Positions 11,148-64,000 of a stretch of 64,000 nucleotides of DNA are shown here, piece by piece. The notes beneath the pieces were generated by a model that worked only from the letters and a program-made list of their open reading frames with translations, searched no databases and was not told the origin of the DNA. The stretch is from an uncultured delta proteobacterium (GTDB lineage: Bacteria; Desulfobacterota; Binatia; Binatales; Binataceae): assembly GCA_963806485.1 (NCBI GenBank), contig CAWDXY010000004.1, forward strand, positions 613,801-677,800, given 5' to 3'. The position numbers and the translations under genes were made by a program. Position 1 is the stretch's first letter. Each line of letters starts with the position of its first letter.

Positions 11148-11210
11148 GAACTTTCTCCTTCAGATTCCAATACTCTAGCAGGGTTGCTCCATCGCGCGTA
11201 AAGTCCAGCG

Positions 11211-11527
11211 ATGGGCCGCAAGATTCTGCTCATCACCACCGATCAGCAGCGCTACGACTCGCTCGGATGCAACGGCGGCCGTATCGCGTGCACGCCAATC
11301 GCCGACTCGCTCGCCGCCGCCGACATCAACTATCGGCGCACATACAATCAGAGCACTGTCTGCATGCCGGCGCGCTCGACGATGATCACCGGCCAGTAGG
11401 TTCGAACTCACGGCCTCTTTGGAACGACGCCGGCCACGCGAAGTTGAAATCCGATCTAGTCGGCGACCTGTACGCGAATCTGCCACCCGCGCCGACTCCG
11501 CAACTGACAGTTGACGCCCTCGCCTGA
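11211..11527 (+). pseudogene. Sulfatase remnant (N-terminal 62 codons plus the C-terminal ~35 codons)
   Basis: ILLITTDQQR and the formylglycine motif CMPARS end at an in-frame TAG (11397-11399). A C-terminus-like WNDAGHAKLKSDLVGDLYANLP follows in another frame. Confidence 0.75.
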
Positions 11528-11550
11528 CGGGTCTGCCTCGTTCATCCCTG

Positions 11551-11594
11551 AAGAACCTAACCCCTAACCCCTTCCCGCTGCGGGAAGGGGGACC
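11551..11594. repeat. REP-like palindromic repeat, family 1, copy a (degenerate tandem copy at 11629-11664)
   Basis: AAGAACCTAACCCCTAACCCCTTCCC-GCTGC-GGGAAGGGGGACC. Identical to 33344-33386 except for the loop. Confidence 0.8.
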
Positions 11595-11714
11595 AGAAGA
11601 AGTCATCCGAGCGCGACGCTGTCCTATCCCCCTCACCCCCTTTCCGGGGCGGAAAGGGGGAACCGAATTTGTGCGGAGGGAGAGGGGAAGACAGAAAGGC
11701 TCTTGCATCGTGAG

Positions 11715-11729
11715 ACTAATAGTATTAGT
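11715..11729. promoter_or_regulatory. Putative TetR operator
   Basis: Perfect inverted repeat ACTAATA-G-TATTAGT just upstream of the hydrolase-TetR pair. Confidence 0.6.
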
Positions 11730-11732
11730 TAT

Positions 11733-12659
11733 ATGTCTATGATAATTAGCACATCGACCAATCTCCTGGCCGCGGCGGCCGTCCTGACTGTTGCCGCGGC
11801 CCTTCCCGCGCGAGCCGATTCCGCAAGCGCAACCACAACAACGCAGTTCCTGAAACTGCCCGGCGGGCAAATCGCTTACGACGACTCCGGCGGCGGCGGA
11901 CCGCTGGTCATCTGCGTCCCCGGACTTGGCGACATGCGCCAGCAATATCGATTCCTCAAACCCAAACTTGTTGCCGCCGGCTTTCGCGTGGTCACGATGG
12001 ATCTCCCGGGGCACGGCCAATCGAGCGTCGATTGGCCCGCCTACTCGCCCGCCCTGGTCGGCGCCGATATTGTCGCGATGGTTCGCCATCTGGGCGCGAG
12101 CCAGGCATTCGTCGTCGGCAACTCGATGGCGGGGGGCTCCGCGGTTTGGGCCGCCGCCGAAATTCCCGATCGCATTGCCGGTATCGTGCTAATCGATCCG
12201 TTCACGCGCGTGATTCCGACCTCGTCATTCCTCATGGCGTTTCTCAAAGTCGCGATGATGCGTCCGTGGGGGCCGTCTTTCTGGTCGATATACTACGGCT
12301 CGCTTTACAAAACTGCGCCGCCGGCCGACCTCGATTCGTATCGCACCGCGCTGGTCGCCAATCTCAAGGAACCCGGCCGAATCGAGGCCACCAAGGCGCT
12401 GATCTTCGCGTCGCAGGCGCCGTGCGAGGCGCGCATTCCCGACGTACATGCTCCGGCGCTGGTCGTGATGGGCACGCGCGACTCGGACTTCGACGATCCC
12501 GCCGCCGAGGCCGATTGGGTCGCGACTCATCTTCACGGAAAAAAGCTGATGGTCGATGGCGCAGGGCATTACCCGCACGTCGAGTATCCCGAGGTCGTCG
12601 CGCCGGCGGTTATCGATTTCGTGAAGGCGGCTCAAGATGGCGAAGCGCGTCGGAATTAA
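11733..12659 (+). CDS. Secreted alpha/beta hydrolase
   Basis: Hydrophobic signal peptide ending ALPARA. Motifs PGLGD, DLPGHG, GNSMAG nucleophile and GAGHYPH. Confidence 0.85.
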   Translation: MSMIISTSTNLLAAAAVLTVAAALPARADSASATTTTQFLKLPGGQIAYDDSGGGGPLVICVPGLGDMRQQYRFLKPKLVAAGFRVVTMDLPGHGQSSVDWPAYSPALVGADIVAMVRHLGASQAFVVGNSMAGGSAVWAAAEIPDRIAGIVLIDPFTRVIPTSSFLMAFLKVAMMRPWGPSFWSIYYGSLYKTAPPADLDSYRTALVANLKEPGRIEATKALIFASQAPCEARIPDVHAPALVVMGTRDSDFDDPAAEADWVATHLHGKKLMVDGAGHYPHVEYPEVVAPAVIDFVKAAQDGEARRN

Positions 12660-13212
12660 CCGCGACGCGGTCATCCGCGCCGCCGCGAAAATCGCCGACG
12701 ACGACGGATGGGACGCGCTGACGCTTGCTCGCGTCGCAGCGAAACTCCGTATTCGTTCGCCCTCGCTCTACAATCACGTTGGCGGCCTCGAAGCGTTGCG
12801 CCGCGAGCTCAAACTGCTGGCACTGCGCGACCTCAACGCGGCGTTGAGCCGCGCGACGATCGGTAAATCGCGCGACGAGGCCGTGCGCGGAGCGGCCTCG
12901 GCCTATCGCGCGTTCGTGAAGCGCCATCCGGGAACTTACGCGGCCACGATGGTAGCCGCGCCGCCCAAAAACGATCCCGCCCTCGAAACGGCCGCGGGAC
13001 AAATCGTCGAGACCCTGCTGTCCGTGCTCAGTGGCTACGGATTGGATCGCCGCGCAGGCCTGCACGCGATTCGCGCGATTCGCAGCGCCGTGCATGGCTT
13101 CGCGGCGCTCGAAATCGCGGGCGGATTTGGAATTCCGCTCGACGTCGACAAAAGCTTTGAATGGCTCGTCTCAGCGCTGCTCAAGGGCCTTTCATCCTCG
13201 CGCTTTCACTGA
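12637..13212 (+). CDS. TetR/AcrR-family regulator with a WHG-type C-terminal domain
   Basis: N-terminal HTH (LARVAAKLRIRSPSLYNHV) and C-terminal SAVHGF. Confidence 0.9.
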   Translation: MAKRVGINRDAVIRAAAKIADDDGWDALTLARVAAKLRIRSPSLYNHVGGLEALRRELKLLALRDLNAALSRATIGKSRDEAVRGAASAYRAFVKRHPGTYAATMVAAPPKNDPALETAAGQIVETLLSVLSGYGLDRRAGLHAIRAIRSAVHGFAALEIAGGFGIPLDVDKSFEWLVSALLKGLSSSRFH

Positions 13213-13355: not shown

Positions 13356-15134
13356 ATGGCTTCCGACGAGCGGCAGACCGGCACGTACGCAACCCTTTCT
13401 GAAAGGACTCTCGAATCGAACGGAGCGCCGAAGTCTCCGGGACGCCGGCGCTTCATCGCGGGACTCGGCGCGGCGACCGCCGCCGTGTCCACTGGAGTCC
13501 TCGCTCCGCTCGCCGCCGCATCGTCGGCCAATGCGCGCGAAGCGGGGCAACCAGACCTCGGCCCCGCCGCTGCCGCCACCGGACTGCCGGCCGGTGTTAC
13601 CAACGGCAGGGTGATCAAATCTTTCGAGCTGCGGGTCGGTGAAGCGACTCAGGACGCACTCGTTGGCCCGGCGGTTAACGTCAACAACGGCGATCCGGCG
13701 CTCTACCCCGACAAGGGCGGCACGTACACCAAGGGTCTTCCGCACGACGACTTCGGACGGGTGAATCTGACCGCCTTCGCAACGTTTACGAAGGCCCTGA
13801 ACAGCGGAAAGTTTTCGGATTTCCAAAATATCATCACTGGCGGCACGCGCACGCTCAATGGCCCGCAAGGTGGGCTGGCCTTCGACCTGGAGGCGCTCGA
13901 CAGCGCGCAGTTCGGACAGCCTCAGGTGCCACCGGCGCCCACAACAGCCAGCGCTCAGAACGCCACCGAGCTGCTCGAACATTACTGGGCTTCGCTGCTT
14001 CGCGACGTGGCCTTCACCGACTATGACTCGAGCGCGGTGGCCGCTGATGCAGCAACGGAATTGGGATCGCAACCTACCTATTTTGGGCCGAGGGACAACA
14101 CCGGCCACGTGACCCCGGACTTGTTGTTCCGGGGCGCGTTCCCAGGCGAGACGCTAGGCCCTTACATCTCCCAATTTTTCATTACCCCAACGGCGCTGGG
14201 CGCCCAACCGATCAGCCAGCAGATAATTACCTATCAGCCGGGCATCGACTACATGACCAGTTTCGCCGACTGGCTGACGGTGCAGAATGGCAATGTCACC
14301 GGCGATAAGAATCAGATCGCTTCGAACCATGTCTACGCCCGGAACGGCCGGGATCTCTCGGCGTTTACCCACGTCGACGTGCTTTACCAGGCCTACTTCA
14401 CGGCGTACCTGATGCTCACCTCAATTGGCGCGCCGCTGAATCCCGGCAACCCCTATATCGGCTCGAAGTCGGAAAACGGCTTCGGCACGTTCGGTGCGCC
14501 CGATTTCGCGGGGACCCTCACCGAAGTTGCGACCAAGGCTTTAGATGCCGTCTGGTATCAGAAATGGTTTGTGCACCTGCGTCCCCGGCCAGAGGCCATC
14601 GCAGGCATCGTCCAGCTGATCATGACCGGGCATAGCAACGAGACCGATGTTACGCTGAGTGACGTCATCCTAAACTCGCAGGGACTTCAGCAGAGTTTCA
14701 CCACGTATGGGACGTGGCTGCTCTCGCAGGCGTTTCCTGAGGGCTCGCCGACGCATCCATCTTATCCGACGGGACACGGCGCGGTCGCCGGCGCATGCAT
14801 CACAGTTCTGAAGTTCTTCTTCGACGGCAACTTCGTGATCCTAAATCCGATGATGCCCTCGAGCGACGGGCTTTCGCTGTCGCCCTACACGGGCGGGGAT
14901 CAGTTAACCGTCAACGGCGAACTCAACAAGCTTGGACACAACGTCAGTTTTGGCCACGGGATCCACGCCGGCATCCACTGGCGCAGCGATACGGACACAT
15001 CCTTGTTGCTGGGAGAGGCGGTCGCGCTCAGCTTCCTCAGGGACAGGGCCCTGACTTACAACGAACCGTTCACCGTCGAAATCACCAAGTTCGATGGGAC
15101 GACGGCGACTATCTCCAACCCGGGGCACCCGTAG
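13356..15134 (+). CDS. Tat-exported vanadium-dependent haloperoxidase-like protein (PAP2 superfamily)
   Basis: Twin-arginine signal RRRFIAGLG. Vanadate-site motifs WYQKWFVHLRPRPE, HPSYPTGHG and AGIHWRSD. Confidence 0.85.
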   Translation: MASDERQTGTYATLSERTLESNGAPKSPGRRRFIAGLGAATAAVSTGVLAPLAAASSANAREAGQPDLGPAAAATGLPAGVTNGRVIKSFELRVGEATQDALVGPAVNVNNGDPALYPDKGGTYTKGLPHDDFGRVNLTAFATFTKALNSGKFSDFQNIITGGTRTLNGPQGGLAFDLEALDSAQFGQPQVPPAPTTASAQNATELLEHYWASLLRDVAFTDYDSSAVAADAATELGSQPTYFGPRDNTGHVTPDLLFRGAFPGETLGPYISQFFITPTALGAQPISQQIITYQPGIDYMTSFADWLTVQNGNVTGDKNQIASNHVYARNGRDLSAFTHVDVLYQAYFTAYLMLTSIGAPLNPGNPYIGSKSENGFGTFGAPDFAGTLTEVATKALDAVWYQKWFVHLRPRPEAIAGIVQLIMTGHSNETDVTLSDVILNSQGLQQSFTTYGTWLLSQAFPEGSPTHPSYPTGHGAVAGACITVLKFFFDGNFVILNPMMPSSDGLSLSPYTGGDQLTVNGELNKLGHNVSFGHGIHAGIHWRSDTDTSLLLGEAVALSFLRDRALTYNEPFTVEITKFDGTTATISNPGHP

Positions 15135-53951: not shown

Positions 53952-56240
53952 ATGGCGGCATCAACCACGACAGGCGATTTCAAAGTTATCGGCACCCGTC
54001 CGATTCGGCACGACGGCGTTGACAAGGTGACCGGCCGCGCCAAGTACGGCGCCGACTACGCGTTCCCCGGGATGCTGCATGGCAAGGTGCTGCGCAGCCC
54101 GCACGCTCACGCGACTATCAAATCGATCAAAGTCGACAAGGCGCTCAAGCTCCCCGGCGTGAAGGCGATCGTCACATCGAAGGATCTCCCGCAGGCCGAG
54201 AACAAGCTCGAGCAGTCCGGTGAGATGGTCATCAACCCGATGTACCTGTCGATGAATATCCTCGCGCACGACAAGGTCCTGTACGACGGCCATGCGATCG
54301 CCGCTGTCGCCGCGACCAGCCCGCATATCGCCGAGGAAGCGCTCCGCCTGATCGAGGTCGAATACGAAGTCCTGCCGCCCGTGATGACCGTTGACGTCGC
54401 CACCAGACCGGGCGCGCCGATTCTGCTCAAGGACCTGCGCAACAAGGAGGAAGGCGACAAGCCGACCAACGTCGCGCAGCATTACCAGTTCAAGCGCGGC
54501 GACCTCGCGGCGGGATTCAAGGCGGCTGACTACGTCGTCGAGCGCGAATTCAACACCGCGATGGTCCACCAGGGCTACATCGAGCCGCACAACGCCGTCG
54601 GCATCTACAACTCCGACGGACAGGCGACGATCTACTGCTCGACGCAAGGCGCCTTCGACGTCCGTTCGCTCAGCGCGCAGGTGCTCGGGATGTCGGTCGG
54701 CCATATCAAAGTCGTGCCGGCCGAAATCGGCGGCGGCTTCGGCGGCAAGACCACAATCTACCTCGAGCCGCTCTCTGTCCTGCTGTCCAAGAAGACCGGC
54801 GCGCCGGTCAAGCTCGTCATGTCGCGCTCGGAAGTGCTCCGCGCCAGCGGCCCGACCTCGGGCTCGAAGACCAAAGTGAAGATGGGCGCGACCAAGGACG
54901 GCAAACTCGTCGCCGCCGAAATCTGGATGGCCTACGAGGCTGGCGCGTTCCCCGGCTCGCCGGTGGGCGCGGGCGCGATGTGCATCATCGCTCCGTACAC
55001 CGTCGAGAATTTTCAAATCGACGCGTACGACGTGGTCGTCAATCGGCCCAAGACCGCGGCCTATCGCGCGCCGGGCGCGACCAACGCCGCGTTCGCGTCC
55101 GAGACCGTGATCGACGAGCTTGCCGAGAAGTGCGGAATTGATCCGATCGACTTCCGCATCAAGAACGGCGTCAAGGAAGGCGCGGCGCAGATCGTCGGTC
55201 CTCCGTACAAGCGCATCGGATTTTTACAGACCTGCGAAGCCATCAAGAACAGCGAGCAATACAAGTCGAAGCTAACCGGCAAGTTCCGCGGACGCGGCGT
55301 CGCGTCGGGATTCTGGTTCAACGCCGGGATGCAGTCCTCGGCAACCGTCAATATCCACACCGACGGAACCGCCAGCGTTGTGACCGGCTCGCCCGATATC
55401 GGCGGCTCGCGCGCGTCGATGGCGATGATCACTGCGGAAGTGCTCGGACTGCCGGTGACCGACGTGCGTCCTATCACCGCCGACACCGATTCAATCGGCC
55501 ATACCGACGTGACCGGCGGCAGCCGCGTCACCTTCGCAACCGGGATGGCGGTGTACGAGGCGGCCAAGGACGCGGTGCGCCAGTTGATCGAGCGCGCCGC
55601 CAAGGTCTGGGAGAAAAAGCCCGACGACGTGGACTTTCGAGACGGCAAGCTCTACGCGAAAGGCAACGGCGTGCCACCACTGTCGATCAAGCAACTCGCG
55701 CCTCGCTTCCCGCGCACCGGAGGACCAATCACCGGCCGTGCCAGCGTTAACGCGCGCGGCGTCGGCCCGGGATTCGCGACCACGGTCGTCGACGTCGAGG
55801 TCGATCCCGACACCGGCAAGGTGCAACTGCTCCGATGCACCGTCGCGCAGGATGCCGGCAAGGCGATCCATCCGAGCTATGTCGAAGGACAAATGCAGGG
55901 CGGCACGGCGCAGGGACTCGGCTGGGCGCTCAACGAAGAATATTTTTACGACGACAAGGGCACGCTCCGTAACTCCGGATTCCTCGACTACCGGATGCCG
56001 ACCTGCCTCGACTTGCCGATGATCGAAACGATTGTCGTCGAGGAAGCGAACCCCGGCCATCCGCTGGGCGTGCGCGGCGTCGGCGAGGTGTCGATCGTGC
56101 CGCCGGTCGCAGCGGTCGCCAATGCGATCTATCGCGCGGTCGGCGTCAGGATGACGGAGACCCCGATGTCGCCGCCGAAGCTGCTGAAGGCGATGCTGAA
56201 GCATCGCGGCTCGACACAACATTCCGCCGCGGCGGATTAA
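53952..56240 (+). CDS. Xanthine dehydrogenase family molybdopterin-binding subunit (not CO dehydrogenase)
   Basis: KVTGRAKY, HQGYIEPH, GGGFGGK, active-site loop AYRAPG, GQMQGG, GVGE. Confidence 0.92.
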   Translation: MAASTTTGDFKVIGTRPIRHDGVDKVTGRAKYGADYAFPGMLHGKVLRSPHAHATIKSIKVDKALKLPGVKAIVTSKDLPQAENKLEQSGEMVINPMYLSMNILAHDKVLYDGHAIAAVAATSPHIAEEALRLIEVEYEVLPPVMTVDVATRPGAPILLKDLRNKEEGDKPTNVAQHYQFKRGDLAAGFKAADYVVEREFNTAMVHQGYIEPHNAVGIYNSDGQATIYCSTQGAFDVRSLSAQVLGMSVGHIKVVPAEIGGGFGGKTTIYLEPLSVLLSKKTGAPVKLVMSRSEVLRASGPTSGSKTKVKMGATKDGKLVAAEIWMAYEAGAFPGSPVGAGAMCIIAPYTVENFQIDAYDVVVNRPKTAAYRAPGATNAAFASETVIDELAEKCGIDPIDFRIKNGVKEGAAQIVGPPYKRIGFLQTCEAIKNSEQYKSKLTGKFRGRGVASGFWFNAGMQSSATVNIHTDGTASVVTGSPDIGGSRASMAMITAEVLGLPVTDVRPITADTDSIGHTDVTGGSRVTFATGMAVYEAAKDAVRQLIERAAKVWEKKPDDVDFRDGKLYAKGNGVPPLSIKQLAPRFPRTGGPITGRASVNARGVGPGFATTVVDVEVDPDTGKVQLLRCTVAQDAGKAIHPSYVEGQMQGGTAQGLGWALNEEYFYDDKGTLRNSGFLDYRMPTCLDLPMIETIVVEEANPGHPLGVRGVGEVSIVPPVAAVANAIYRAVGVRMTETPMSPPKLLKAMLKHRGSTQHSAAAD

Positions 56241-56294
56241 TCAGGAATGATCAAAAGGCGGCGGGCCAAGTCGCTCGCCCCCTTCGCTTTTACG

Positions 56295-56564
56295 ATGCCT
56301 ACCGTTGTTATTCCTTCACTGTTACGCAAATTTACTGGCGGCATCGAGCGCGTTGACGTCCCTGGCAAATCAATTCGCGAGCTCGTTCGCCATCTTGGCC
56401 AGCAGTTTCCAGGGATTGACCAGCAGTTGCTCGAAGACGGAGACATCCGGCCGTCGATCGCCGTGTCAATCGACGGTGAAATTGCAACTGGCGGCATATT
56501 GGATACCGTTGGCGAGCATAGCGAAGTACATTTCATCCCCGCCCTCGGCGGCGGCGAAGTGTGA
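56295..56564 (+). CDS. MoaD/ThiS-family ubiquitin-like protein with a C-terminal extension
   Basis: Beta-grasp pattern ending HFIPALGGGEV-stop. Start at ATG 56295. Confidence 0.8.
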   Translation: MPTVVIPSLLRKFTGGIERVDVPGKSIRELVRHLGQQFPGIDQQLLEDGDIRPSIAVSIDGEIATGGILDTVGEHSEVHFIPALGGGEV

Positions 56565-56636
56565 TCGCGTCAAAAACTGGCAGAAAAAACGGAAATTTGC
56601 GCTTTCGAGGGCAGGATCGGAAGATATTGCCGCTTC

Positions 56637-56664
56637 TTGCAACATACGCGGAATTACGTACAAT
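56637..56664 (+). promoter_or_regulatory. Sigma70-type promoter with no downstream protein gene
   Basis: TTGCAA-N16-TACAAT in the AT-rich gap between converging genes. Confidence 0.55.
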
Positions 56665-56670
56665 AACGTT

Positions 56671-56850
56671 GCTGGCCGGGGTTTGCCCCCCTTTTCCCGG
56701 TTGGCTACGGGCCGGGTGGAGCAATCCGCCTGGCCCTTATCATTTGTTCAGAACAGTTATCTGACCGAATCGTATTCGGCGCGGGAATGGGTGGGGTCTA
56801 ATCGCAGGATCGACCTTCCCAAAAAGCTCTAATACCGCCATTAGCGGAAC
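56671..56850 (+). ncRNA. Candidate structured small RNA (family not recognised; 3' end uncertain)
   Basis: A run of hairpins follows the promoter, including a 12-bp stem capped by a GCAA tetraloop (56709-56736). G-U wobbles are favoured on the + strand. Confidence 0.45.
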
Positions 56851-56904
56851 TAATGAAAGCCGTCCAACTTGGCTGGCTATGCTGGCGACGGCCTACCCCG
56901 CCAA

Positions 56905-57303
56905 TCAGCTCATGAAGACTTCGCGCACATGATTGGTGTCGTTGTACTCGCGGACCTGCGCGATCTTGTCGCCCTTGAACAGGAAGTAGAAGTGGTACCG
57001 GTTGGCGTATTTCTTCCCGTTGCCGGCGACTGTGTCCGATTCGGCTTGGATCGCGACGTGCGGGCCCTCGGCGATCACCGAATGGAACTTCAGGTTCAGG
57101 CCATTGGGGAACATCGCCTTGAGTAACGGCGGCGTCGACTTTACATATGCCTGTTTGCCGCGGATCGGCGCGACCCTCGGCAGCCGCCCCATCATCTCGA
57201 ATTCGAAATCGTCGGCGATCAAATCCTCGAAGACCTTTACATCCGCCTTTTCGAAGTTCTTGAGAAAAGCGAGCGCGCGTTCCTTTTGTTGTTCGAGGTT
57301 CAT
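56905..57303 (-). CDS. NTF2/SnoaL-like (ketosteroid isomerase fold) protein
   Basis: IAEGPHVA, GKKYANRYHF, KIAQVREY.DT. Start at MNLEQQK. Confidence 0.85.
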   Translation of the reverse strand: MNLEQQKERALAFLKNFEKADVKVFEDLIADDFEFEMMGRLPRVAPIRGKQAYVKSTPPLLKAMFPNGLNLKFHSVIAEGPHVAIQAESDTVAGNGKKYANRYHFYFLFKGDKIAQVREYNDTNHVREVFMS

Positions 57304-57379
57304 GCGAAAATCTCCAATCACAAGCCGGCCGCAGCGCCTCACGCGCATGCGCCCGCGGGGAATATAGCGTCGTCCGGGC

Positions 57380-57847
57380 TCAGGGCCGGGCGCGCGGACG
57401 GAAGACCAGCACCGAGCATGGCGCGTTGCGCACCAGTTTCTCGGTGACACTGCCGATCAGAATATGTTCGGCGCCGCTTCGTCCGTGCGTCGACATGACG
57501 ATCAGATCAATCGCCTGCTCTTTGGCGTAGTCGACGAGTTTCTGAACCGGATTGCCGACCACGGCAAAGGTGAAGACGTTCTTCGAATCGCCGAAATCAT
57601 CCTTCTTGATACGCGCGAGCTCCTCCTCCGCCTGCTCGATCATCGCGGCTTCCCGCACCAGCTCGCGGCTTTGCTCGGCGCTGGTCGCCAAAGGCAGCGG
57701 GATGAAATGGAGATGCGGCGCGATGACGTGCATCAGATGAACTTCGGCACCGGTGTCCTTCGCCAGTTCCATCGCGCCCCGCATCGCTTCCATCGAGTGC
57801 GTGGAAAAATCGATCGGCGCGAGAATTTTCTTGACGTTCTGAATCAT
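57380..57847 (-). CDS. Universal stress protein
   Basis: KILAPIDFS, DLIVMSTHGRSG...GSVTEKLVRNAPCSVL. Confidence 0.95.
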   Translation of the reverse strand: MIQNVKKILAPIDFSTHSMEAMRGAMELAKDTGAEVHLMHVIAPHLHFIPLPLATSAEQSRELVREAAMIEQAEEELARIKKDDFGDSKNVFTFAVVGNPVQKLVDYAKEQAIDLIVMSTHGRSGAEHILIGSVTEKLVRNAPCSVLVFRPRARP

Positions 57848-57985
57848 AGAAGCCTCCAGGTACCAGAATTCTTGGAACTATAACGAGCCTCGCCGCCGCT
57901 GCAAACCCGCACCCGTCTATGCCATTATCCCGCCACACCGCCGCCCCTGTCGACACTGGCGGTAAAGAAGGAGACCTCTCTTCTC

Positions 57986-58051
57986 ACTGGGTGCAGGGGT
58001 CACCCCTGCCCAAGGAAGCGTGAAACCCACGGAGGGGTTTCACATTAAATT
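57986..58051. repeat. Two-hairpin REP/MITE-like element, family 2, copy b
   Basis: Reverse complement of 42389-42453 with only about four differences. Confidence 0.85.
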
Positions 58052-58092
58052 TTGCACGTTCGTTCACGCACACTCTCAAGGAAGGAACTACA

Positions 58093-59148
58093 ATGAAAGG
58101 AACCGTCTTCCACGGACCCCACGACGTCCGCGTCGAGCGCGTCGACGACCCCGCGCTCCAGACCCCGACCGACGTGCTTGTTCGAATCACGCGCGCCGGA
58201 ATTTGCGGCTCCGACCTGCACCCTTATCACGGCGCGATGCCCATCGAGCCCGGCTTCGTGCTGGGTCATGAAGGCGTCGGCGTGATCGAGGAAGTCGGCG
58301 CGGGCGTCGATCGCCTCAAGAAGGGCGACCGAGTCGTCGTGTCCGGCCTGGTCGCATGCGGCCGATGCTTCTTCTGTCGGCGCGGGCAGCCCTCGCAATG
58401 CGCTGAAAGCGGCTCGGCCGTATTCGGCTACGGCGCGAGCGCCGCCGGCAAGCTCGGATGGCTCGGCGGCGAGCAATCCGAAGCGGTCCGCGTCCCGATG
58501 GCAGACTACACCTGCTACCCTCTCCCCGACGCGATCGACGACGACGTCGCGGTCTTCCTCGCCGACATCCTGCCAACGTCCTACTTCGGCGCCGTCAACG
58601 GCAACATCCGTCCCGGCGACACGGTCGCCATCTTCGGATGCGGCCCGGTAGGCCTATGCGCCGTGATGAGCGCGAAGCTGTTCGGCCCCGCCGAAGTGAT
58701 AGCCGTCGACAGCATCCCGTACCGCCTGGAGCTAGCACGCAAGCTAGGCGCTCTAGCTGTGGACACTGAAAAGGCGCAACAAACGATATTGGATCGCACA
58801 GAAGGGCGCGGCGCCGACGTCACGATAGAGGCAGTAGGCAACGACGCCGCCCTGACATCCGCGATATTGGCCACCCGCGGCGGCGGCACAGTCTCAGTAA
58901 TCGGCGTATTCGCGATGCCGTCGTTCAATTTCCCAATAGGCTACGCCTTCGCAAAGGACCTAACGTTCCGGATAGGCCTGGCCAACATCAACGCCCACAT
59001 CCCGGAACTATCCCGCCTAATAGAAAAAGGCACGCTAGACCCGCGCCCCCTAATAAGCCACATAATGCCCCTAGCCGAAGCAGCCAAAGGCTACGAAATC
59101 TTCAACGCAAGAAAAGACAACGTAATGAAGGTGCTACTAAAGCCTTGA
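58093..59148 (+). CDS. Zn-dependent alcohol dehydrogenase (glutathione-independent formaldehyde dehydrogenase-like)
   Basis: GICGSDLH, GHEG, structural Zn CGRCFFC...C, LADILPT, GCGPVG. Confidence 0.9.
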   Translation: MKGTVFHGPHDVRVERVDDPALQTPTDVLVRITRAGICGSDLHPYHGAMPIEPGFVLGHEGVGVIEEVGAGVDRLKKGDRVVVSGLVACGRCFFCRRGQPSQCAESGSAVFGYGASAAGKLGWLGGEQSEAVRVPMADYTCYPLPDAIDDDVAVFLADILPTSYFGAVNGNIRPGDTVAIFGCGPVGLCAVMSAKLFGPAEVIAVDSIPYRLELARKLGALAVDTEKAQQTILDRTEGRGADVTIEAVGNDAALTSAILATRGGGTVSVIGVFAMPSFNFPIGYAFAKDLTFRIGLANINAHIPELSRLIEKGTLDPRPLISHIMPLAEAAKGYEIFNARKDNVMKVLLKP

Positions 59149-59161
59149 AGCGTCCGACTTT

Positions 59162-59258
59162 GTCATCCTGACCGCAGCAAGCGAGGCGAGCGCAGCTGGC
59201 TTCTGGCCTCCGGACAGCTTCGCGCCAACGAAGCCGGTACCGATTTTTGAGTCGCTGC
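59162..59258. repeat. GTCATCCTGA-type dispersed repeat, family 3, copy b
   Basis: Aligns with 52187-52284. Confidence 0.85.
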
Positions 59259-59306
59259 CTTCAATTCCGTCATTAGATCAAACAAACTTTCAATTGACGA
59301 AATCCG

Positions 59307-59957
59307 CTATCGTTTTGTTCGTCTGTAATATTCAAATAGATAGGCAATTCCAAAGACTACCGCCGGAAAGAGAATTGCAACTGAAATCGGATTACTTGAA
59401 CCCGGAAAGGCAATTCTTGGAGCCACAATAAAAAATACTGCTGCGAGGCATGTAGCCGCAGCCCATTGTTTCGCTATGCTTGTAAAGGCCCGAGTGTTTG
59501 TTTCTTTAGGGAAGGGACCTGTTTCAGGCCAATTATCCAAAGCCGCTCGTGCCAGTCGGTCAGCGATATGCGAGGGAATGCGAAGCCTTCCGATGGGAGG
59601 ATTCCCGAATCGAAGCTCGGCAGGCTGCCCCAAGAACCCCTTCTTCCTTGTGACTCTAAGTTCCTGCCAAGGCACAAAGAAATCCCGGCAGAATATTCCA
59701 AAAATTCTGATCATTCCGATCCGTAAACCGGACGGACAAACACCTATCTTTAGTACTCGATTCATATTCACCCCAATGCCCATGGAGCCGGACTGGTACT
59801 TAAGCTGTAGAAGTTCCTTCTCATTTCGATTTGGAAACTTTTGCATCAGGAGATACCAACCTGACAGCAGGCCAAGGAGAGTAGTAATCGCCAGCCACAT
59901 GAGTACAAAGAATGCCGGGAAATAGACTGGGGAAATTTGTTTGTGATTATCCAGCAC
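59307..59957 (-). CDS. Low-GC hypothetical membrane protein
   Basis: One N-terminal and two C-terminal hydrophobic segments. Two 60-nt spot checks gave 42% and 48% GC, far below neighbouring genes. Confidence 0.7.
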   Translation of the reverse strand: MLDNHKQISPVYFPAFFVLMWLAITTLLGLLSGWYLLMQKFPNRNEKELLQLKYQSGSMGIGVNMNRVLKIGVCPSGLRIGMIRIFGIFCRDFFVPWQELRVTRKKGFLGQPAELRFGNPPIGRLRIPSHIADRLARAALDNWPETGPFPKETNTRAFTSIAKQWAAATCLAAVFFIVAPRIAFPGSSNPISVAILFPAVVFGIAYLFEYYRRTKR

Positions 59958-60107
59958 TCGATTTCAAACCCAAGCTACTAGACCGTTTGGATAAAATCAG
60001 CATTACGAAAACCCATGCGGGCTCTTTCCAGCGGCGCTGGGAGGGGATAGTTTCGCGTGTGGCGGGCCACGGCGGCAACGAGCTCAATAACAACGAAGGT
60101 GTCAGAC

Positions 60108-61982: not shown

Positions 61983-62291
61983 CTAGTGGTCGCGTCCGCC
62001 GCGGCGTTCGCCACCGCCACCGCCCCCGCCACCAGGTCCGCCGCTGCGCGCCTGCGCTTCGTTGACGCGGATCGGCCGGCCCTTGATGTCGCGACCGTTC
62101 AGTTTCTTGATTGCGCCTTCGGCTGCTTCGTCAGTCGCCATCTCGACGAATCCGAATCCCCGCGAGCGGTTGGTGGCGCGGTCGATGATGACTTGCGAGC
62201 TGTCCACCTTTCCTGCTTCCGAAAATACGTCGAGCAGATCCTGGTCGGTCACAGTCCAAGCCAGATTCCCAACATACAGTCTGCGGCCCAT
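61983..62291 (-). CDS. RRM (RNP-1) RNA-binding protein with a Gly-rich tail
   Basis: RNP2 LYVGNL, RNP1 SRGFGFVEM and VNEA. ATG at 62291. Confidence 0.95.
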   Translation of the reverse strand: MGRRLYVGNLAWTVTDQDLLDVFSEAGKVDSSQVIIDRATNRSRGFGFVEMATDEAAEGAIKKLNGRDIKGRPIRVNEAQARSGGPGGGGGGGGERRGGRDH

Positions 62292-62881
62292 TACCCTCTC
62301 CTTGCGCGCGAACCGGCTGCCCCTCGGCGTACTCCGTCTGTATCGATAGGCATTCGGTACAGACACCTAAATGGTGAGGCAATACCTGCGGCGCGCCTCT
62401 AGTCCGAAATTCCGGAATGCTTATAGCATCGCGCCAAGCGCAAACATAGTAGTCTTGCTACTCATTCCAAGCCTTTGAGGTAACAACTTGGTAATGGAAA
62501 GGTCGTCGGTCGGACGGGGCTGTTGATTACGGAATCGAAGGACGCCTATGCAAGATATTGTATGCATTGTGATTCCTGATTGAGTCTAAAATCGTTATAT
62601 CGCACGAGTGCGACTTGCCCTCCTTCCATTGTCTCGATTCGAGGGCCACGAGGGTCGTGAGACCTTGCGAGGTCGGCAGAGAGCGACGAGAGCAAATCCA
62701 TCTTCAGACTCGAAGCTTGGTTACCGTTTGGGTCTCTGGGTAGGCATCTTCGACTCCTCGAAGTGACTATCTGCTGAATGAGTGCAGAGCCGGGTTGCTA
62801 GTTGAGTCCAGCACAAGTCCGAATACCTAACAGCTATATCCAGTCGGCTGATGTGGGTAATGGACAAAATGACTTTGATTC

Positions 62882-62910
62882 TTGTGAAGTTAGGTTTGAT
62901 TGTGTAGATT
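62882..62910 (+). promoter_or_regulatory. Sigma70-type promoter
   Basis: TTGTGA-N17-TAGATT with an upstream TG. RBS AAAGGAG at 62941-62947. Confidence 0.5.
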
Positions 62911-62955
62911 CAAAGTTGATTAGTACTAACGATTTCCCCGAAAGGAGATAGCTAC

Positions 62956-63339
62956 ATGCCTCGGAAGAAAGCCTCACGCGGAGCCGCATCTGCCTTCCAG
63001 CAAGTTCAGCGGCAAGCGCGCACCCTGCTCGTGAATCTGCGCAAAGACATCCGCTTGAAGGAATCGATACTGAGTAAACTCAAACAGGAGGAAGCGCGTC
63101 TGGGATCGTTGATCGGTCGCGGCGGCGGTGCATCGAAGGCAATCAGCAGCGGGCCGCGTGGCCGGGTCAATTGGCGCACAGTGCTTTCGGCGCTTCCCAA
63201 GCAATTCAAGGCGGCCGACGTCCGCGAGGTGCGGGGACTCAAGGGCAAGCGGCCGTCGGAAATTTTTGCGGCGATCACGCGATGGATCGATGCGGGAGCT
63301 GCAAGGAGAAAAGCACGCGGAGTATACGAAAGAGTCTAA
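62956..63339 (+). CDS. Small basic protein: coiled coil, Gly/Ser linker and putative winged-helix domain
   Basis: Strong RBS. Heptad-like LLVNLRKDIRLKESILSKLKQEEARLGSL and wing-like C-terminus RRKARGVYE. Confidence 0.7.
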   Translation: MPRKKASRGAASAFQQVQRQARTLLVNLRKDIRLKESILSKLKQEEARLGSLIGRGGGASKAISSGPRGRVNWRTVLSALPKQFKAADVREVRGLKGKRPSEIFAAITRWIDAGAARRKARGVYERV

Positions 63340-63518
63340 TCGAAGCTTCGCACACTCTGGCCGCAGTCCGGTAGTGCGCGATGTGGGCATAGTTAAGCGG
63401 CGCCGCAAAGGATCAGCAGCGCCGTTTTCTATTGATTAGTTAACAGCAAACAAGTGACCGCGCCGCGAGGTTGCTATAAACTATGAAACCTCATTCGCGT
63501 GCGTAAGAGTCAAACCAC

Positions 63519-64000
63519 ATGGCCGTGATGACTATTGAATGGCGGGCAGACGCCGTTCGCATGATCGATCAGCGCCTGCTTCCGGCGCGCGAGGTAATTC
63601 GGACCTATCGCGACTACCGTGGCGTGGCCGAGGCAATTCGCACGATGGTGATTCGCGGCGCACCCGCGATTGGCGTAGCAGCTGCGATGGGTGTTGCGCT
63701 CGGAATCAAGGGCACTGCGGGCGCGCAAGCGCGAAAACGCTTCGCAGTGGTCGCGAGGGCTCTCAAAGCCACCAGGCCGACGGCGGTAAATCTGGCCTGG
63801 GCGGTGGATCGAATGGGCCGCGCGCTCGACGAGAGCATCGCGCTCGACGCGGCAGAATTGTTTCACCGCATGCGTGCGGAGGCGATTGCGATTTACGATG
63901 AAGACCTTGCTACGAATCGCGCGCTCGGCCGGTTCGGCGCCGAACTCATCGGAGATCCGGCAACCGTGCTGACGCATTGCAACGCCGGCGCGCTGGCCAC
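63519..64000 (+). CDS. mtnA: S-methyl-5-thioribose-1-phosphate isomerase, 5' part (runs off the window)
   Basis: Translated by hand because it is absent from the ORF track: IDQRLLP, MVIRGAPAIGVAAA, TRPTAVNL.WA, LTHCNAGALA. Confidence 0.93.
   Translation, partial: MAVMTIEWRADAVRMIDQRLLPAREVIRTYRDYRGVAEAIRTMVIRGAPAIGVAAAMGVALGIKGTAGAQARKRFAVVARALKATRPTAVNLAWAVDRMGRALDESIALDAAELFHRMRAEAIAIYDEDLATNRALGRFGAELIGDPATVLTHCNAGALA

Follow-up and report, generated by a model that had tools for sequence, protein, structure and literature searches.

Can the vanadate-binding pocket of a haloperoxidase be rebuilt around histidine, and what would such an enzyme do? The question is raised by a gene in a 64,000-nucleotide stretch of DNA from an uncultured bacterium of the Binataceae (assembly GCA_963806485.1, contig CAWDXY010000004.1, forward-strand positions 613,801 to 677,800), referred to here, at its full length, as the window. 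The gene lies on the plus strand at 13356..15134, stop codon included, and its reading frame, homology and structural model identify the product (P0002) as a PAP2-superfamily protein resembling the vanadium bromoperoxidases (VBPOs). The ATG at 13356 is backed by homologues, and the frame encodes 592 amino acids before the stop codon that ends at 15134. Judged by its sequence, the protein is a homologue of the VBPO branch of the vanadium-dependent haloperoxidases (VHPOs) that fails one defining feature of the first shell around vanadate: of the two arginines that clamp the anion, the second (Arg545 in Corallina, Arg490 in CiVCPO) gives way, in the alignment, to two histidines, His534 and His537, hereafter the variant pocket. 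By homology and model the product has the VBPO fold, and it is predicted to be exported through the twin-arginine translocation (Tat) pathway of a soil Binataceae bacterium. Our preferred reading, to which we give about even odds, is that the pocket holds an oxyanion on histidine, most likely vanadate, and that the enzyme is a peroxidase or haloperoxidase.

When the protein was compared with all PDB sequences using phmmer, only VBPOs were matched. That of Corallina officinalis (1qhb) ranked first and aligned over the whole length (E 7e-76), the enzymes of C. pilulifera, Ascophyllum nodosum (1qi9 and 5aa6) and Acaryochloris marina (5lpc) were also found, and E values against all solved VBPOs ran from 7e-76 to 1e-60. 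The mature part of the protein (residues 61-592) was modelled with AlphaFold2 from 71 homologues, with a mean predicted local distance difference score (pLDDT) of 82.4 and a predicted template modelling score (pTM) of 0.87. Foldseek placed this model on every solved VBPO with template modelling (TM) scores of 0.80-0.85, reaching 0.85 for Ascophyllum 1qi9, while NapH1, NapH3, CiVCPO and acid phosphatases align with it through the shared core only. The protein has the full-length homology, in sequence and in fold, that marks the VBPO-type VHPOs (the algal and cyanobacterial branch). The name under which NCBI holds members of its clade, “vanadium-dependent haloperoxidase”, was assigned by similarity, and a search of the protein against NCBIfam returned no family match.

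Residues 1-60 (13356..13535, plus strand) read as a Tat signal peptide, in which a twin-arginine segment, RRRFIAGL (13443..13466, within GRRRFIAGLG), is followed by a hydrophobic core and then by ASSANA, the cleavage site after which is our own reading of the sequence and not the output of a prediction tool. The twin arginine, hydrophobic region and AxA of a Tat substrate are all present, export itself being predicted, and RR-x-[FL] occurs in 108/110 full-length close homologues. A first-pass annotation, made from the DNA letters alone, had described a VHPO homologue bearing a Tat signal, and both the leader motif and the full-length VBPO homology uphold that description.

The departure from the known enzymes is concentrated in the third of three active-site motifs, all on the plus strand. 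In the phmmer alignment to 1qhb, whose chain numbering was checked and equals that of the literature, motif 1, KWFVHLRPRP (14562..14591), falls on KFNIHRRLRP and keeps Lys403 and Arg411 (Corallina K398 and R406). The K-x6/7-R-P pattern of PAP2 enzymes and haloperoxidases is therefore complete, in agreement with the earlier description of an intact K-x7-RP. Motif 2, HPSYPTGH (14754..14777), falls on HPSYGSGH. Its His467, Thr472, Gly473 and His474 correspond to Corallina H478, S483, G484 and H485, and His474, the motif-2 histidine of the PAP2 signature, is taken as the acid-base residue; the usual (P)-S-G-H with its acid-base histidine is thus present as P-T-G-H, the hydroxyl being retained by threonine. 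Motif 3, GHGIHAGIHWRSD (14952..14990), falls on GRNM-AGVHYFSD: His534 stands in the Arg545 column, His537 is an insertion with no Corallina counterpart, and the vanadate ligand His541 (Corallina H551) and Asp545 are kept. The histidine and aspartate of the [SG]-R-x3-5-H-x3-D pattern are found here, and its second anion-binding arginine is not, which leaves the vanadate first shell of Lys, two Arg, Ser, Gly and two His one arginine short. The replacement of this arginine by histidine with a one-residue insertion, suspected at first pass, is evident in this alignment and in that of variant and canonical relatives described below. The first-shell residues concerned have been described as conserved in all known VHPOs (PMC11871015, PMC10278073).

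The motif-3 histidines 534, 537 and 541 are spaced H-x2-H-x3-H, and the model predicts that His534 and His537 lie in the final turn of a helix spanning residues 519-537, with His541 in a loop before the next helix. The halide-facing positions, Trp400 and His467 in this protein, are Trp/His in 108/110 variants. We take the second of them to be His in algal VBPOs and Phe in CiVCPO (the Phe397/His478 position). The first, Trp400 (14553..14555, plus strand), stands three residues ahead of the catalytic lysine and is Trp in 108/110 variants; in characterized enzymes this K-3 position sways the use of chloride versus bromide, and it is Trp in CiVCPO and AnVBPO and Arg in Corallina and A. marina (PMC11871015).

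Positions specific to the variant were read from a MAFFT alignment in which 84 variant relatives were set against 100 canonical ones. Position 534 is His in 100% of the variants and Arg in 100% of the canonical sequences, and position 537 is His in 100% of the former and a gap in 100% of the latter. Thr472 is likewise fixed (100%), against Ala 59%, Ser 34% and Thr 0% in canonical relatives; the first-pass annotation had called it a threonine in place of the usual serine, which holds against the algal and fungal enzymes but not against these bacterial proteins. Leucine occupies position 408 (K+5), where 89% of canonical relatives have Arg, and further differences are Gly475 (canonical Ala 84%), Phe487 (Ala 97%), Gly491 (Glu 68%), Asn520 (Gly 71%) and Thr338 (Val 86%), together with a new His528 (canonical Ser 38%, Ala 22%) and a new Asp547 at a position that varies among canonical sequences (Thr 30%, Ile 12%). 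No clade-specific Arg or Lys that could compensate for the loss is fixed among these 84 variants. The arginine of WRSD was considered as a clade-specific substitute and rejected, because HWRSD is equally the consensus in the Arg-containing relatives.

Among variant members of 46-92% identity, the Lys, Arg, Gly and His of motifs 1 and 2 do not vary, nor do the ligand His and the Asp of motif 3, and in some 296 variant-clade sequences His534, His537 and His541 are near-invariant, with one Tyr at 537 and one at 541 as the exceptions. Since His534 and His537 are completely conserved in the alignment and nearly so in the larger set, the comparison indicates that the new pocket is under strong purifying selection and not decaying. 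Amino acid composition also differs: in the Tat-exported variant subclade (window 13536..15131 and homologues) Met accounts for 0.67% of residues, compared with 1.46% in canonical relatives and 2.34% in neighbouring gene products, and Cys for 0.36%, compared with 0.80% and 1.39%. The depletion of Met is weakly consistent with an oxidant-producing enzyme and, with the Trp/His halide-facing pair, lends mild support to oxidative halide chemistry.

How widely is this pocket shared? GHG[IT]H[AS]GIHWRSD and HP[SA]YPTGH occur in all of the 120 nearest database proteins, at identities of 71% or more. Among representatives of 50%-identity clusters, of which the best 150 of 3698 matches were examined, the signature was confined to the nearest clusters, and the rest, at 37-47% identity, read GR..AG.H. 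The signature-bearing rows form one clade with a support of 99 in a tree of 136 sequences, and an IQ-TREE analysis from which motif and covarying columns had been removed split 24 variant from 40 canonical sequences (SH-aLRT 99). These trees point to a subfamily of single origin, which by alignment keeps His541, His474, Lys403, Arg411, Gly473, the hydroxyl at 472 and the Trp400/His467 pair.

A scan of one genome per prokaryotic species confirmed at least 576 related stretches, the best 80 of which were used for counts of taxonomy and neighbourhood. Every one of these 80 comes from a soil or peat metagenome-assembled genome (MAG). Their hosts are Binatus and Binataceae, Acidobacteriota (Terriglobia, Bryobacteraceae, Acidoferrum, Sulfotelmatobacter and Korobacteraceae), Verrucomicrobiota (Udaeobacter and Chthoniobacterales) and some Alphaproteobacteria. 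Frameshifts and stops are absent from 76/80 loci, and all of the intact genes (76/76) keep the signature, which on these sequence comparisons marks a large soil subfamily, monophyletic and spread over several phyla, and is not a private oddity. A pseudogene or assembly artefact was ruled out by the intact frame and by conservation in hundreds of genomes.

In the tree, the Binatus copies are nested within an Acidobacteriota-dominated clade. A family-level protein search found a variant-type copy (at least 50% identity) in about 7/81 genomes of the window's own family and in 2/5 of its genus; the gene is therefore patchy and accessory, and has probably been exchanged among soil bacteria. A phylum-wide scan of DNA for the pattern GHGIHAGIH matched the own genome alone in 301 genomes, few of which belong to the same family. 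The DNA runs that hold the sequence are soil metagenomes only. One variant-clade gene sits on a contig labelled “Patescibacteria group bacterium” (DATKNR010000033.1, locus L043), although its closest grouping is with a copy from Binatia; faulty binning is a likelier explanation than a true host.

How might such a pocket work? His541, as ligand or nucleophile, would hold an oxyanion of tetrahedral or trigonal-bipyramidal geometry, for which homology makes vanadate the default candidate. In the model, His534 and His537 are one helical turn apart and could both face the same side, where two imidazoles, giving one hydrogen bond each, would stand in for the bidentate guanidinium. With H2O2, the site would form a peroxo-vanadate and, outside the cytoplasm, oxidize a halide or some other nucleophile. 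The pocket would contain less fixed positive charge, because the Arg at K+5 is lost as well, and its charge would now depend on pH. From this we would expect chloride oxidation probably weaker than in canonical enzymes, with bromide, iodide or peroxidative chemistry instead, and a binding of cofactor or anion that varies with pH. The prediction also draws on alanine mutants of CiVCPO: in the work of Hemrika and colleagues in 1999, the K353A, R360A and R490A enzymes reportedly lose efficient chloride oxidation and remain bromoperoxidases. Lys353, Arg360 and Arg490 form a positive cage around the vanadate (PMC10278073).

Several observations weigh against a vanadate-holding peroxidase or haloperoxidase. 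The Pfam PAP2 model scores the protein at 20.1 bits, under its gathering cutoff of 27.2, and covers motifs 1 and 2 with motif 3 unaligned. Most soils contain little bromide or iodide. The gene was found in no RNA run, and no neighbour is conserved clade-wide in 81 loci (the best generic family reaches 19/81), so that gene context gives no functional hint. Export is not general either, a signal peptide being found in 0/120 members of a second, sister variant subclade of about 545 amino acids. Lastly, the basal relatives P0124, P0129 and P0130 keep GHGIHAGIH with the Asp of HxxxD changed to Ala or Ser, and read HP[CD]YPTGH in motif 2, and P0145 (1122 amino acids) reads GQGIHAGSD, its ligand His also lost. 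Because some members have lost this Asp or the ligand His, the variant clade is, on the evidence of its sequences, functionally labile.

The sister subclade starts with MADLTKLPQ (P0125, P0126, P0275-P0392) and is hosted by Korobacteraceae, Thermoanaerobaculia and other Acidobacteriota. Its motifs, GHGIHAGIHWRSD, HPAYPTGH and KW.VHLRHRP, form the same pocket as in the Tat-bearing variants. We had considered that an acidic periplasm alone keeps the His pair protonated; this idea is weakened, and is not general, because the leaderless proteins share the pocket.

Could the same residues serve a chemistry other than peroxidation? His541 as nucleophile and His474 as acid might act on a phosphate ester, which would make the protein a phosphatase or another phosphoryl- or oxyanion-transfer enzyme, a role we judge unlikely. 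Equally doubtful is its ecological elaboration, perhaps phosphorus scavenging in poor soils, with the His pair tuning the site for phosphate and vanadate not the physiological ligand. The PAP2 catalytic set (K, R, GH, H and D) is indeed kept bar one Arg, but the lost Arg is part of the PAP2 signature itself, SRxxxxxHxxxD in phosphatases, and counts equally against a phosphatase and a haloperoxidase. Weak phosphatase activity has been reported for the apo form of vanadium chloroperoxidase, and phosphate readily enters VHPO crystals. Phosphate-bound A. marina structures have been described (PMC11871015). A homologue is listed in one source as “membrane-associated phospholipid phosphatase”, the hosts belong to oligotrophic groups of soil bacteria, and among VHPO homologues non-halogenating chemistry has a precedent in NapH3 (8cxl). 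Against these points stand the conservation of the whole 530-residue VBPO scaffold with its halide-facing Trp/His pair, the depletion of Met, which better suits oxidative chemistry, and a set of neighbours without phosphate-regulon or transport genes. Quite unlikely, in our view, is that the His-rich pocket (His467, 474, 528, 534, 537 and 541) binds a different cofactor, such as a transition-metal cation or another oxyanion, for instance molybdate or tungstate; the result would be a PAP2-fold enzyme with a chemistry not seen in the family, an outcome to which we give the same low credence. The gain of three clade-specific histidines (528, 534 and 537) and Asp547, the loss of two Arg and a Glu, and the H-x2-H-x3-H spacing all speak for such a change, and Tat export often serves proteins that acquire their cofactors in the cytoplasm. 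However, the invariant Lys403 and Arg411 beside the site favour an anion over a cation, Tat signals are frequent in canonical Arg-containing relatives too (60/99), one variant subclade has no leader, and metal-handling genes are not among the neighbours.

Loss of activity altogether has also to be weighed, since the missing first-shell residue is called conserved in all known VHPOs (PMC11871015, PMC10278073) and some related members have lost further catalytic residues. A pseudo-enzyme that has lost catalysis or does no more than bind, kept for a structural or sensing role, is nevertheless very unlikely: every other catalytic residue and the two new histidines hardly vary in four phyla, even at identities as low as 46%, a pattern typical of a selected active site, and the great majority of loci have open frames, with frameshifts or stops absent in 76/80. 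A bolder reading joins His534 and His537 with His528, Asp547 and the loss of two Arg, and supposes that the site has been converted to another cofactor or to a pH-gated oxyanion; we think it unlikely. Were it true, this soil subfamily, spread over hundreds of Acidobacteriota, Binatia and Udaeobacter species, would be a new catalytic class on the VBPO scaffold, and might, in abundance but so far overlooked, drive the turnover of halogens, phosphorus or peroxide in soils.

The vanadate-dependent peroxidase or haloperoxidase that we regard as evenly balanced can be placed among known systems as follows. The algal VBPOs (Corallina officinalis and C. pilulifera, 1qhb, 1up8 and 7qwi; Ascophyllum nodosum, 1qi9 and 5aa6) share about 30-33% identity with the protein over the full length, with TM scores of 0.82-0.85. 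They agree with it in the Lys and Arg of motif 1, the Gly-His of motif 2, and the ligand His and the Asp; like Corallina, the protein has His at the His478 position and, like AnVBPO, Trp at K-3. Unlike Corallina, it has His534 and the inserted His537 for R545, Thr for Ser483 and Leu for R403, and unlike all of the algal enzymes it is bacterial and has a Tat leader. The solved bacterial member of the VBPO-type branch, from Acaryochloris marina (5lpc, 8q20-22; E 1e-61, TM 0.81), has a canonical first shell, an Arg at K-3 (R425) and a dodecameric assembly (PMC11871015), whereas our protein has the His pair and Trp at K-3.

The canonical bacterial VBPO-like proteins (about 100 clusters at 50% identity, with 37-47% identity to our protein) share KW.VH.R.RP, HP[AS]Y..GH and G.HWRSD with it, and many have Tat leaders. 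They differ in reading GR..AG.H, with Arg in 100% and no insertion, and in their Arg at K+5, Ala487 and Glu491, and they lie across a branch of support 99 from the variant clade. The CiVCPO- and NapH1-type chloroperoxidases and the class A acid phosphatases (PAP2) have the active-site signature and the helical core in common with it, but only that core aligns (TM about 0.2), and the motif-3 Arg present in the former (R490) and in the SR...H of the phosphatases is lost here. Natural-product VHPOs such as NapH1 and Mcl24 sit in biosynthetic clusters and have the Lys/Ser selectivity residues of the NapH1 type; our gene lies in no such cluster, and the fold match to NapH1 is distant and partial.

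Canonical relatives also occur close to the variant. One, a paralogue of 580 amino acids and 44% identity, is encoded in the same genome (contig C1:556860-558527; 1510..3252 of locus L002, minus strand); its leader is Tat-like, and its motif 3, GRASAGIHWRED, keeps the canonical Arg. Its motif 2 reads HPSYPAAH, both the Ser and the Gly of S-G-H being Ala, which by sequence is a different departure from the VHPO pocket within one genome. In two Binatus MAG loci, a canonical-type VBPO-like gene of about 557 codons (FGR[VI]D[SA]GIHWRQD; L005:6031-7704 and L008:6137-7813) immediately precedes the variant gene in the same orientation, a tandem arrangement absent from the window; this upstream paralogue passes the Pfam PAP2 cutoff with 35.4 bits. 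Two further loci, L070 and L079, each hold two variant copies within about 6 kb.

The motif strings were not found in the literature searched, which held no publication on the subfamily or on VHPOs of Binatia, and the literature and database searches yielded no characterized member of the variant clade; the first-pass proviso that the variant might be an already characterized subfamily thus found nothing to bear it out. VHPO papers state that every known enzyme conserves the residues holding vanadate, and that outer shells determine halide specificity. To this rule the clade is an exception that arose in nature, lies in the first shell and is under strong selection, and it occurs in the dominant uncultured bacteria of acid and organic soils. 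If its enzymes are active, they would reveal the extent to which a vanadate pocket tolerates rebuilding, put the model of charge and halide specificity derived from Ala mutants to a natural test, and point to a bacterial source for the large and poorly attributed formation of organohalogens in soil. Should they be something other than haloperoxidases, the name “vanadium-dependent haloperoxidase” is wrong for many database entries, and there is a new activity to be found. As a single stand-alone gene, the variant should be easy to assay.

Around the gene, Pfam matches identify a TetR-family regulator, a convergent MFS transporter, MOSC and DUF1272 proteins, zinc-dependent dehydrogenases (Zn-ADH) and a rhamnosidase. 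These are regulatory, transport and redox genes, in keeping with the earlier statement that no natural-product cluster surrounds the locus. In an all-against-all BLAST comparison of the open reading frames (ORFs) of 80 related loci and the window, the window's neighbours were common to close Binatus relatives only (8-13/81 loci). The TetR-family gene (12637..13212, plus strand; TetR_C_33 and TetR_N) lies on the same strand, 143 bp ahead of the variant start codon. Its product may be a local regulator; it is the upstream neighbour in 8 close Binatus loci only. The promoter of its own that the first-pass annotation gave to the variant gene could not be confirmed, as a scan for the sigma-70 consensus found no such site and only the 143-bp gap follows the same-strand TetR gene. 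The sole terminator-like match in a terminator scan lies inside the TetR gene on the other strand, and Rfam and tRNA scans of the window found nothing.

Two ORFs on the minus strand have no Pfam match, one of 304 amino acids (11175..12089), common to only 4 related loci, and one of 216 (59307..59957). The G+C content is 0.56-0.58 at 56001..60000 and 62001..64000, compared with 0.60-0.65 elsewhere in the window. The ORFs of low G+C are ordinary, encoding SnoaL-like, Zn-ADH, enoyl-CoA hydratase and aldose epimerase proteins, and a molybdopterin subunit of the xanthine dehydrogenase family (53952..56240) adjoins the low-G+C stretch.

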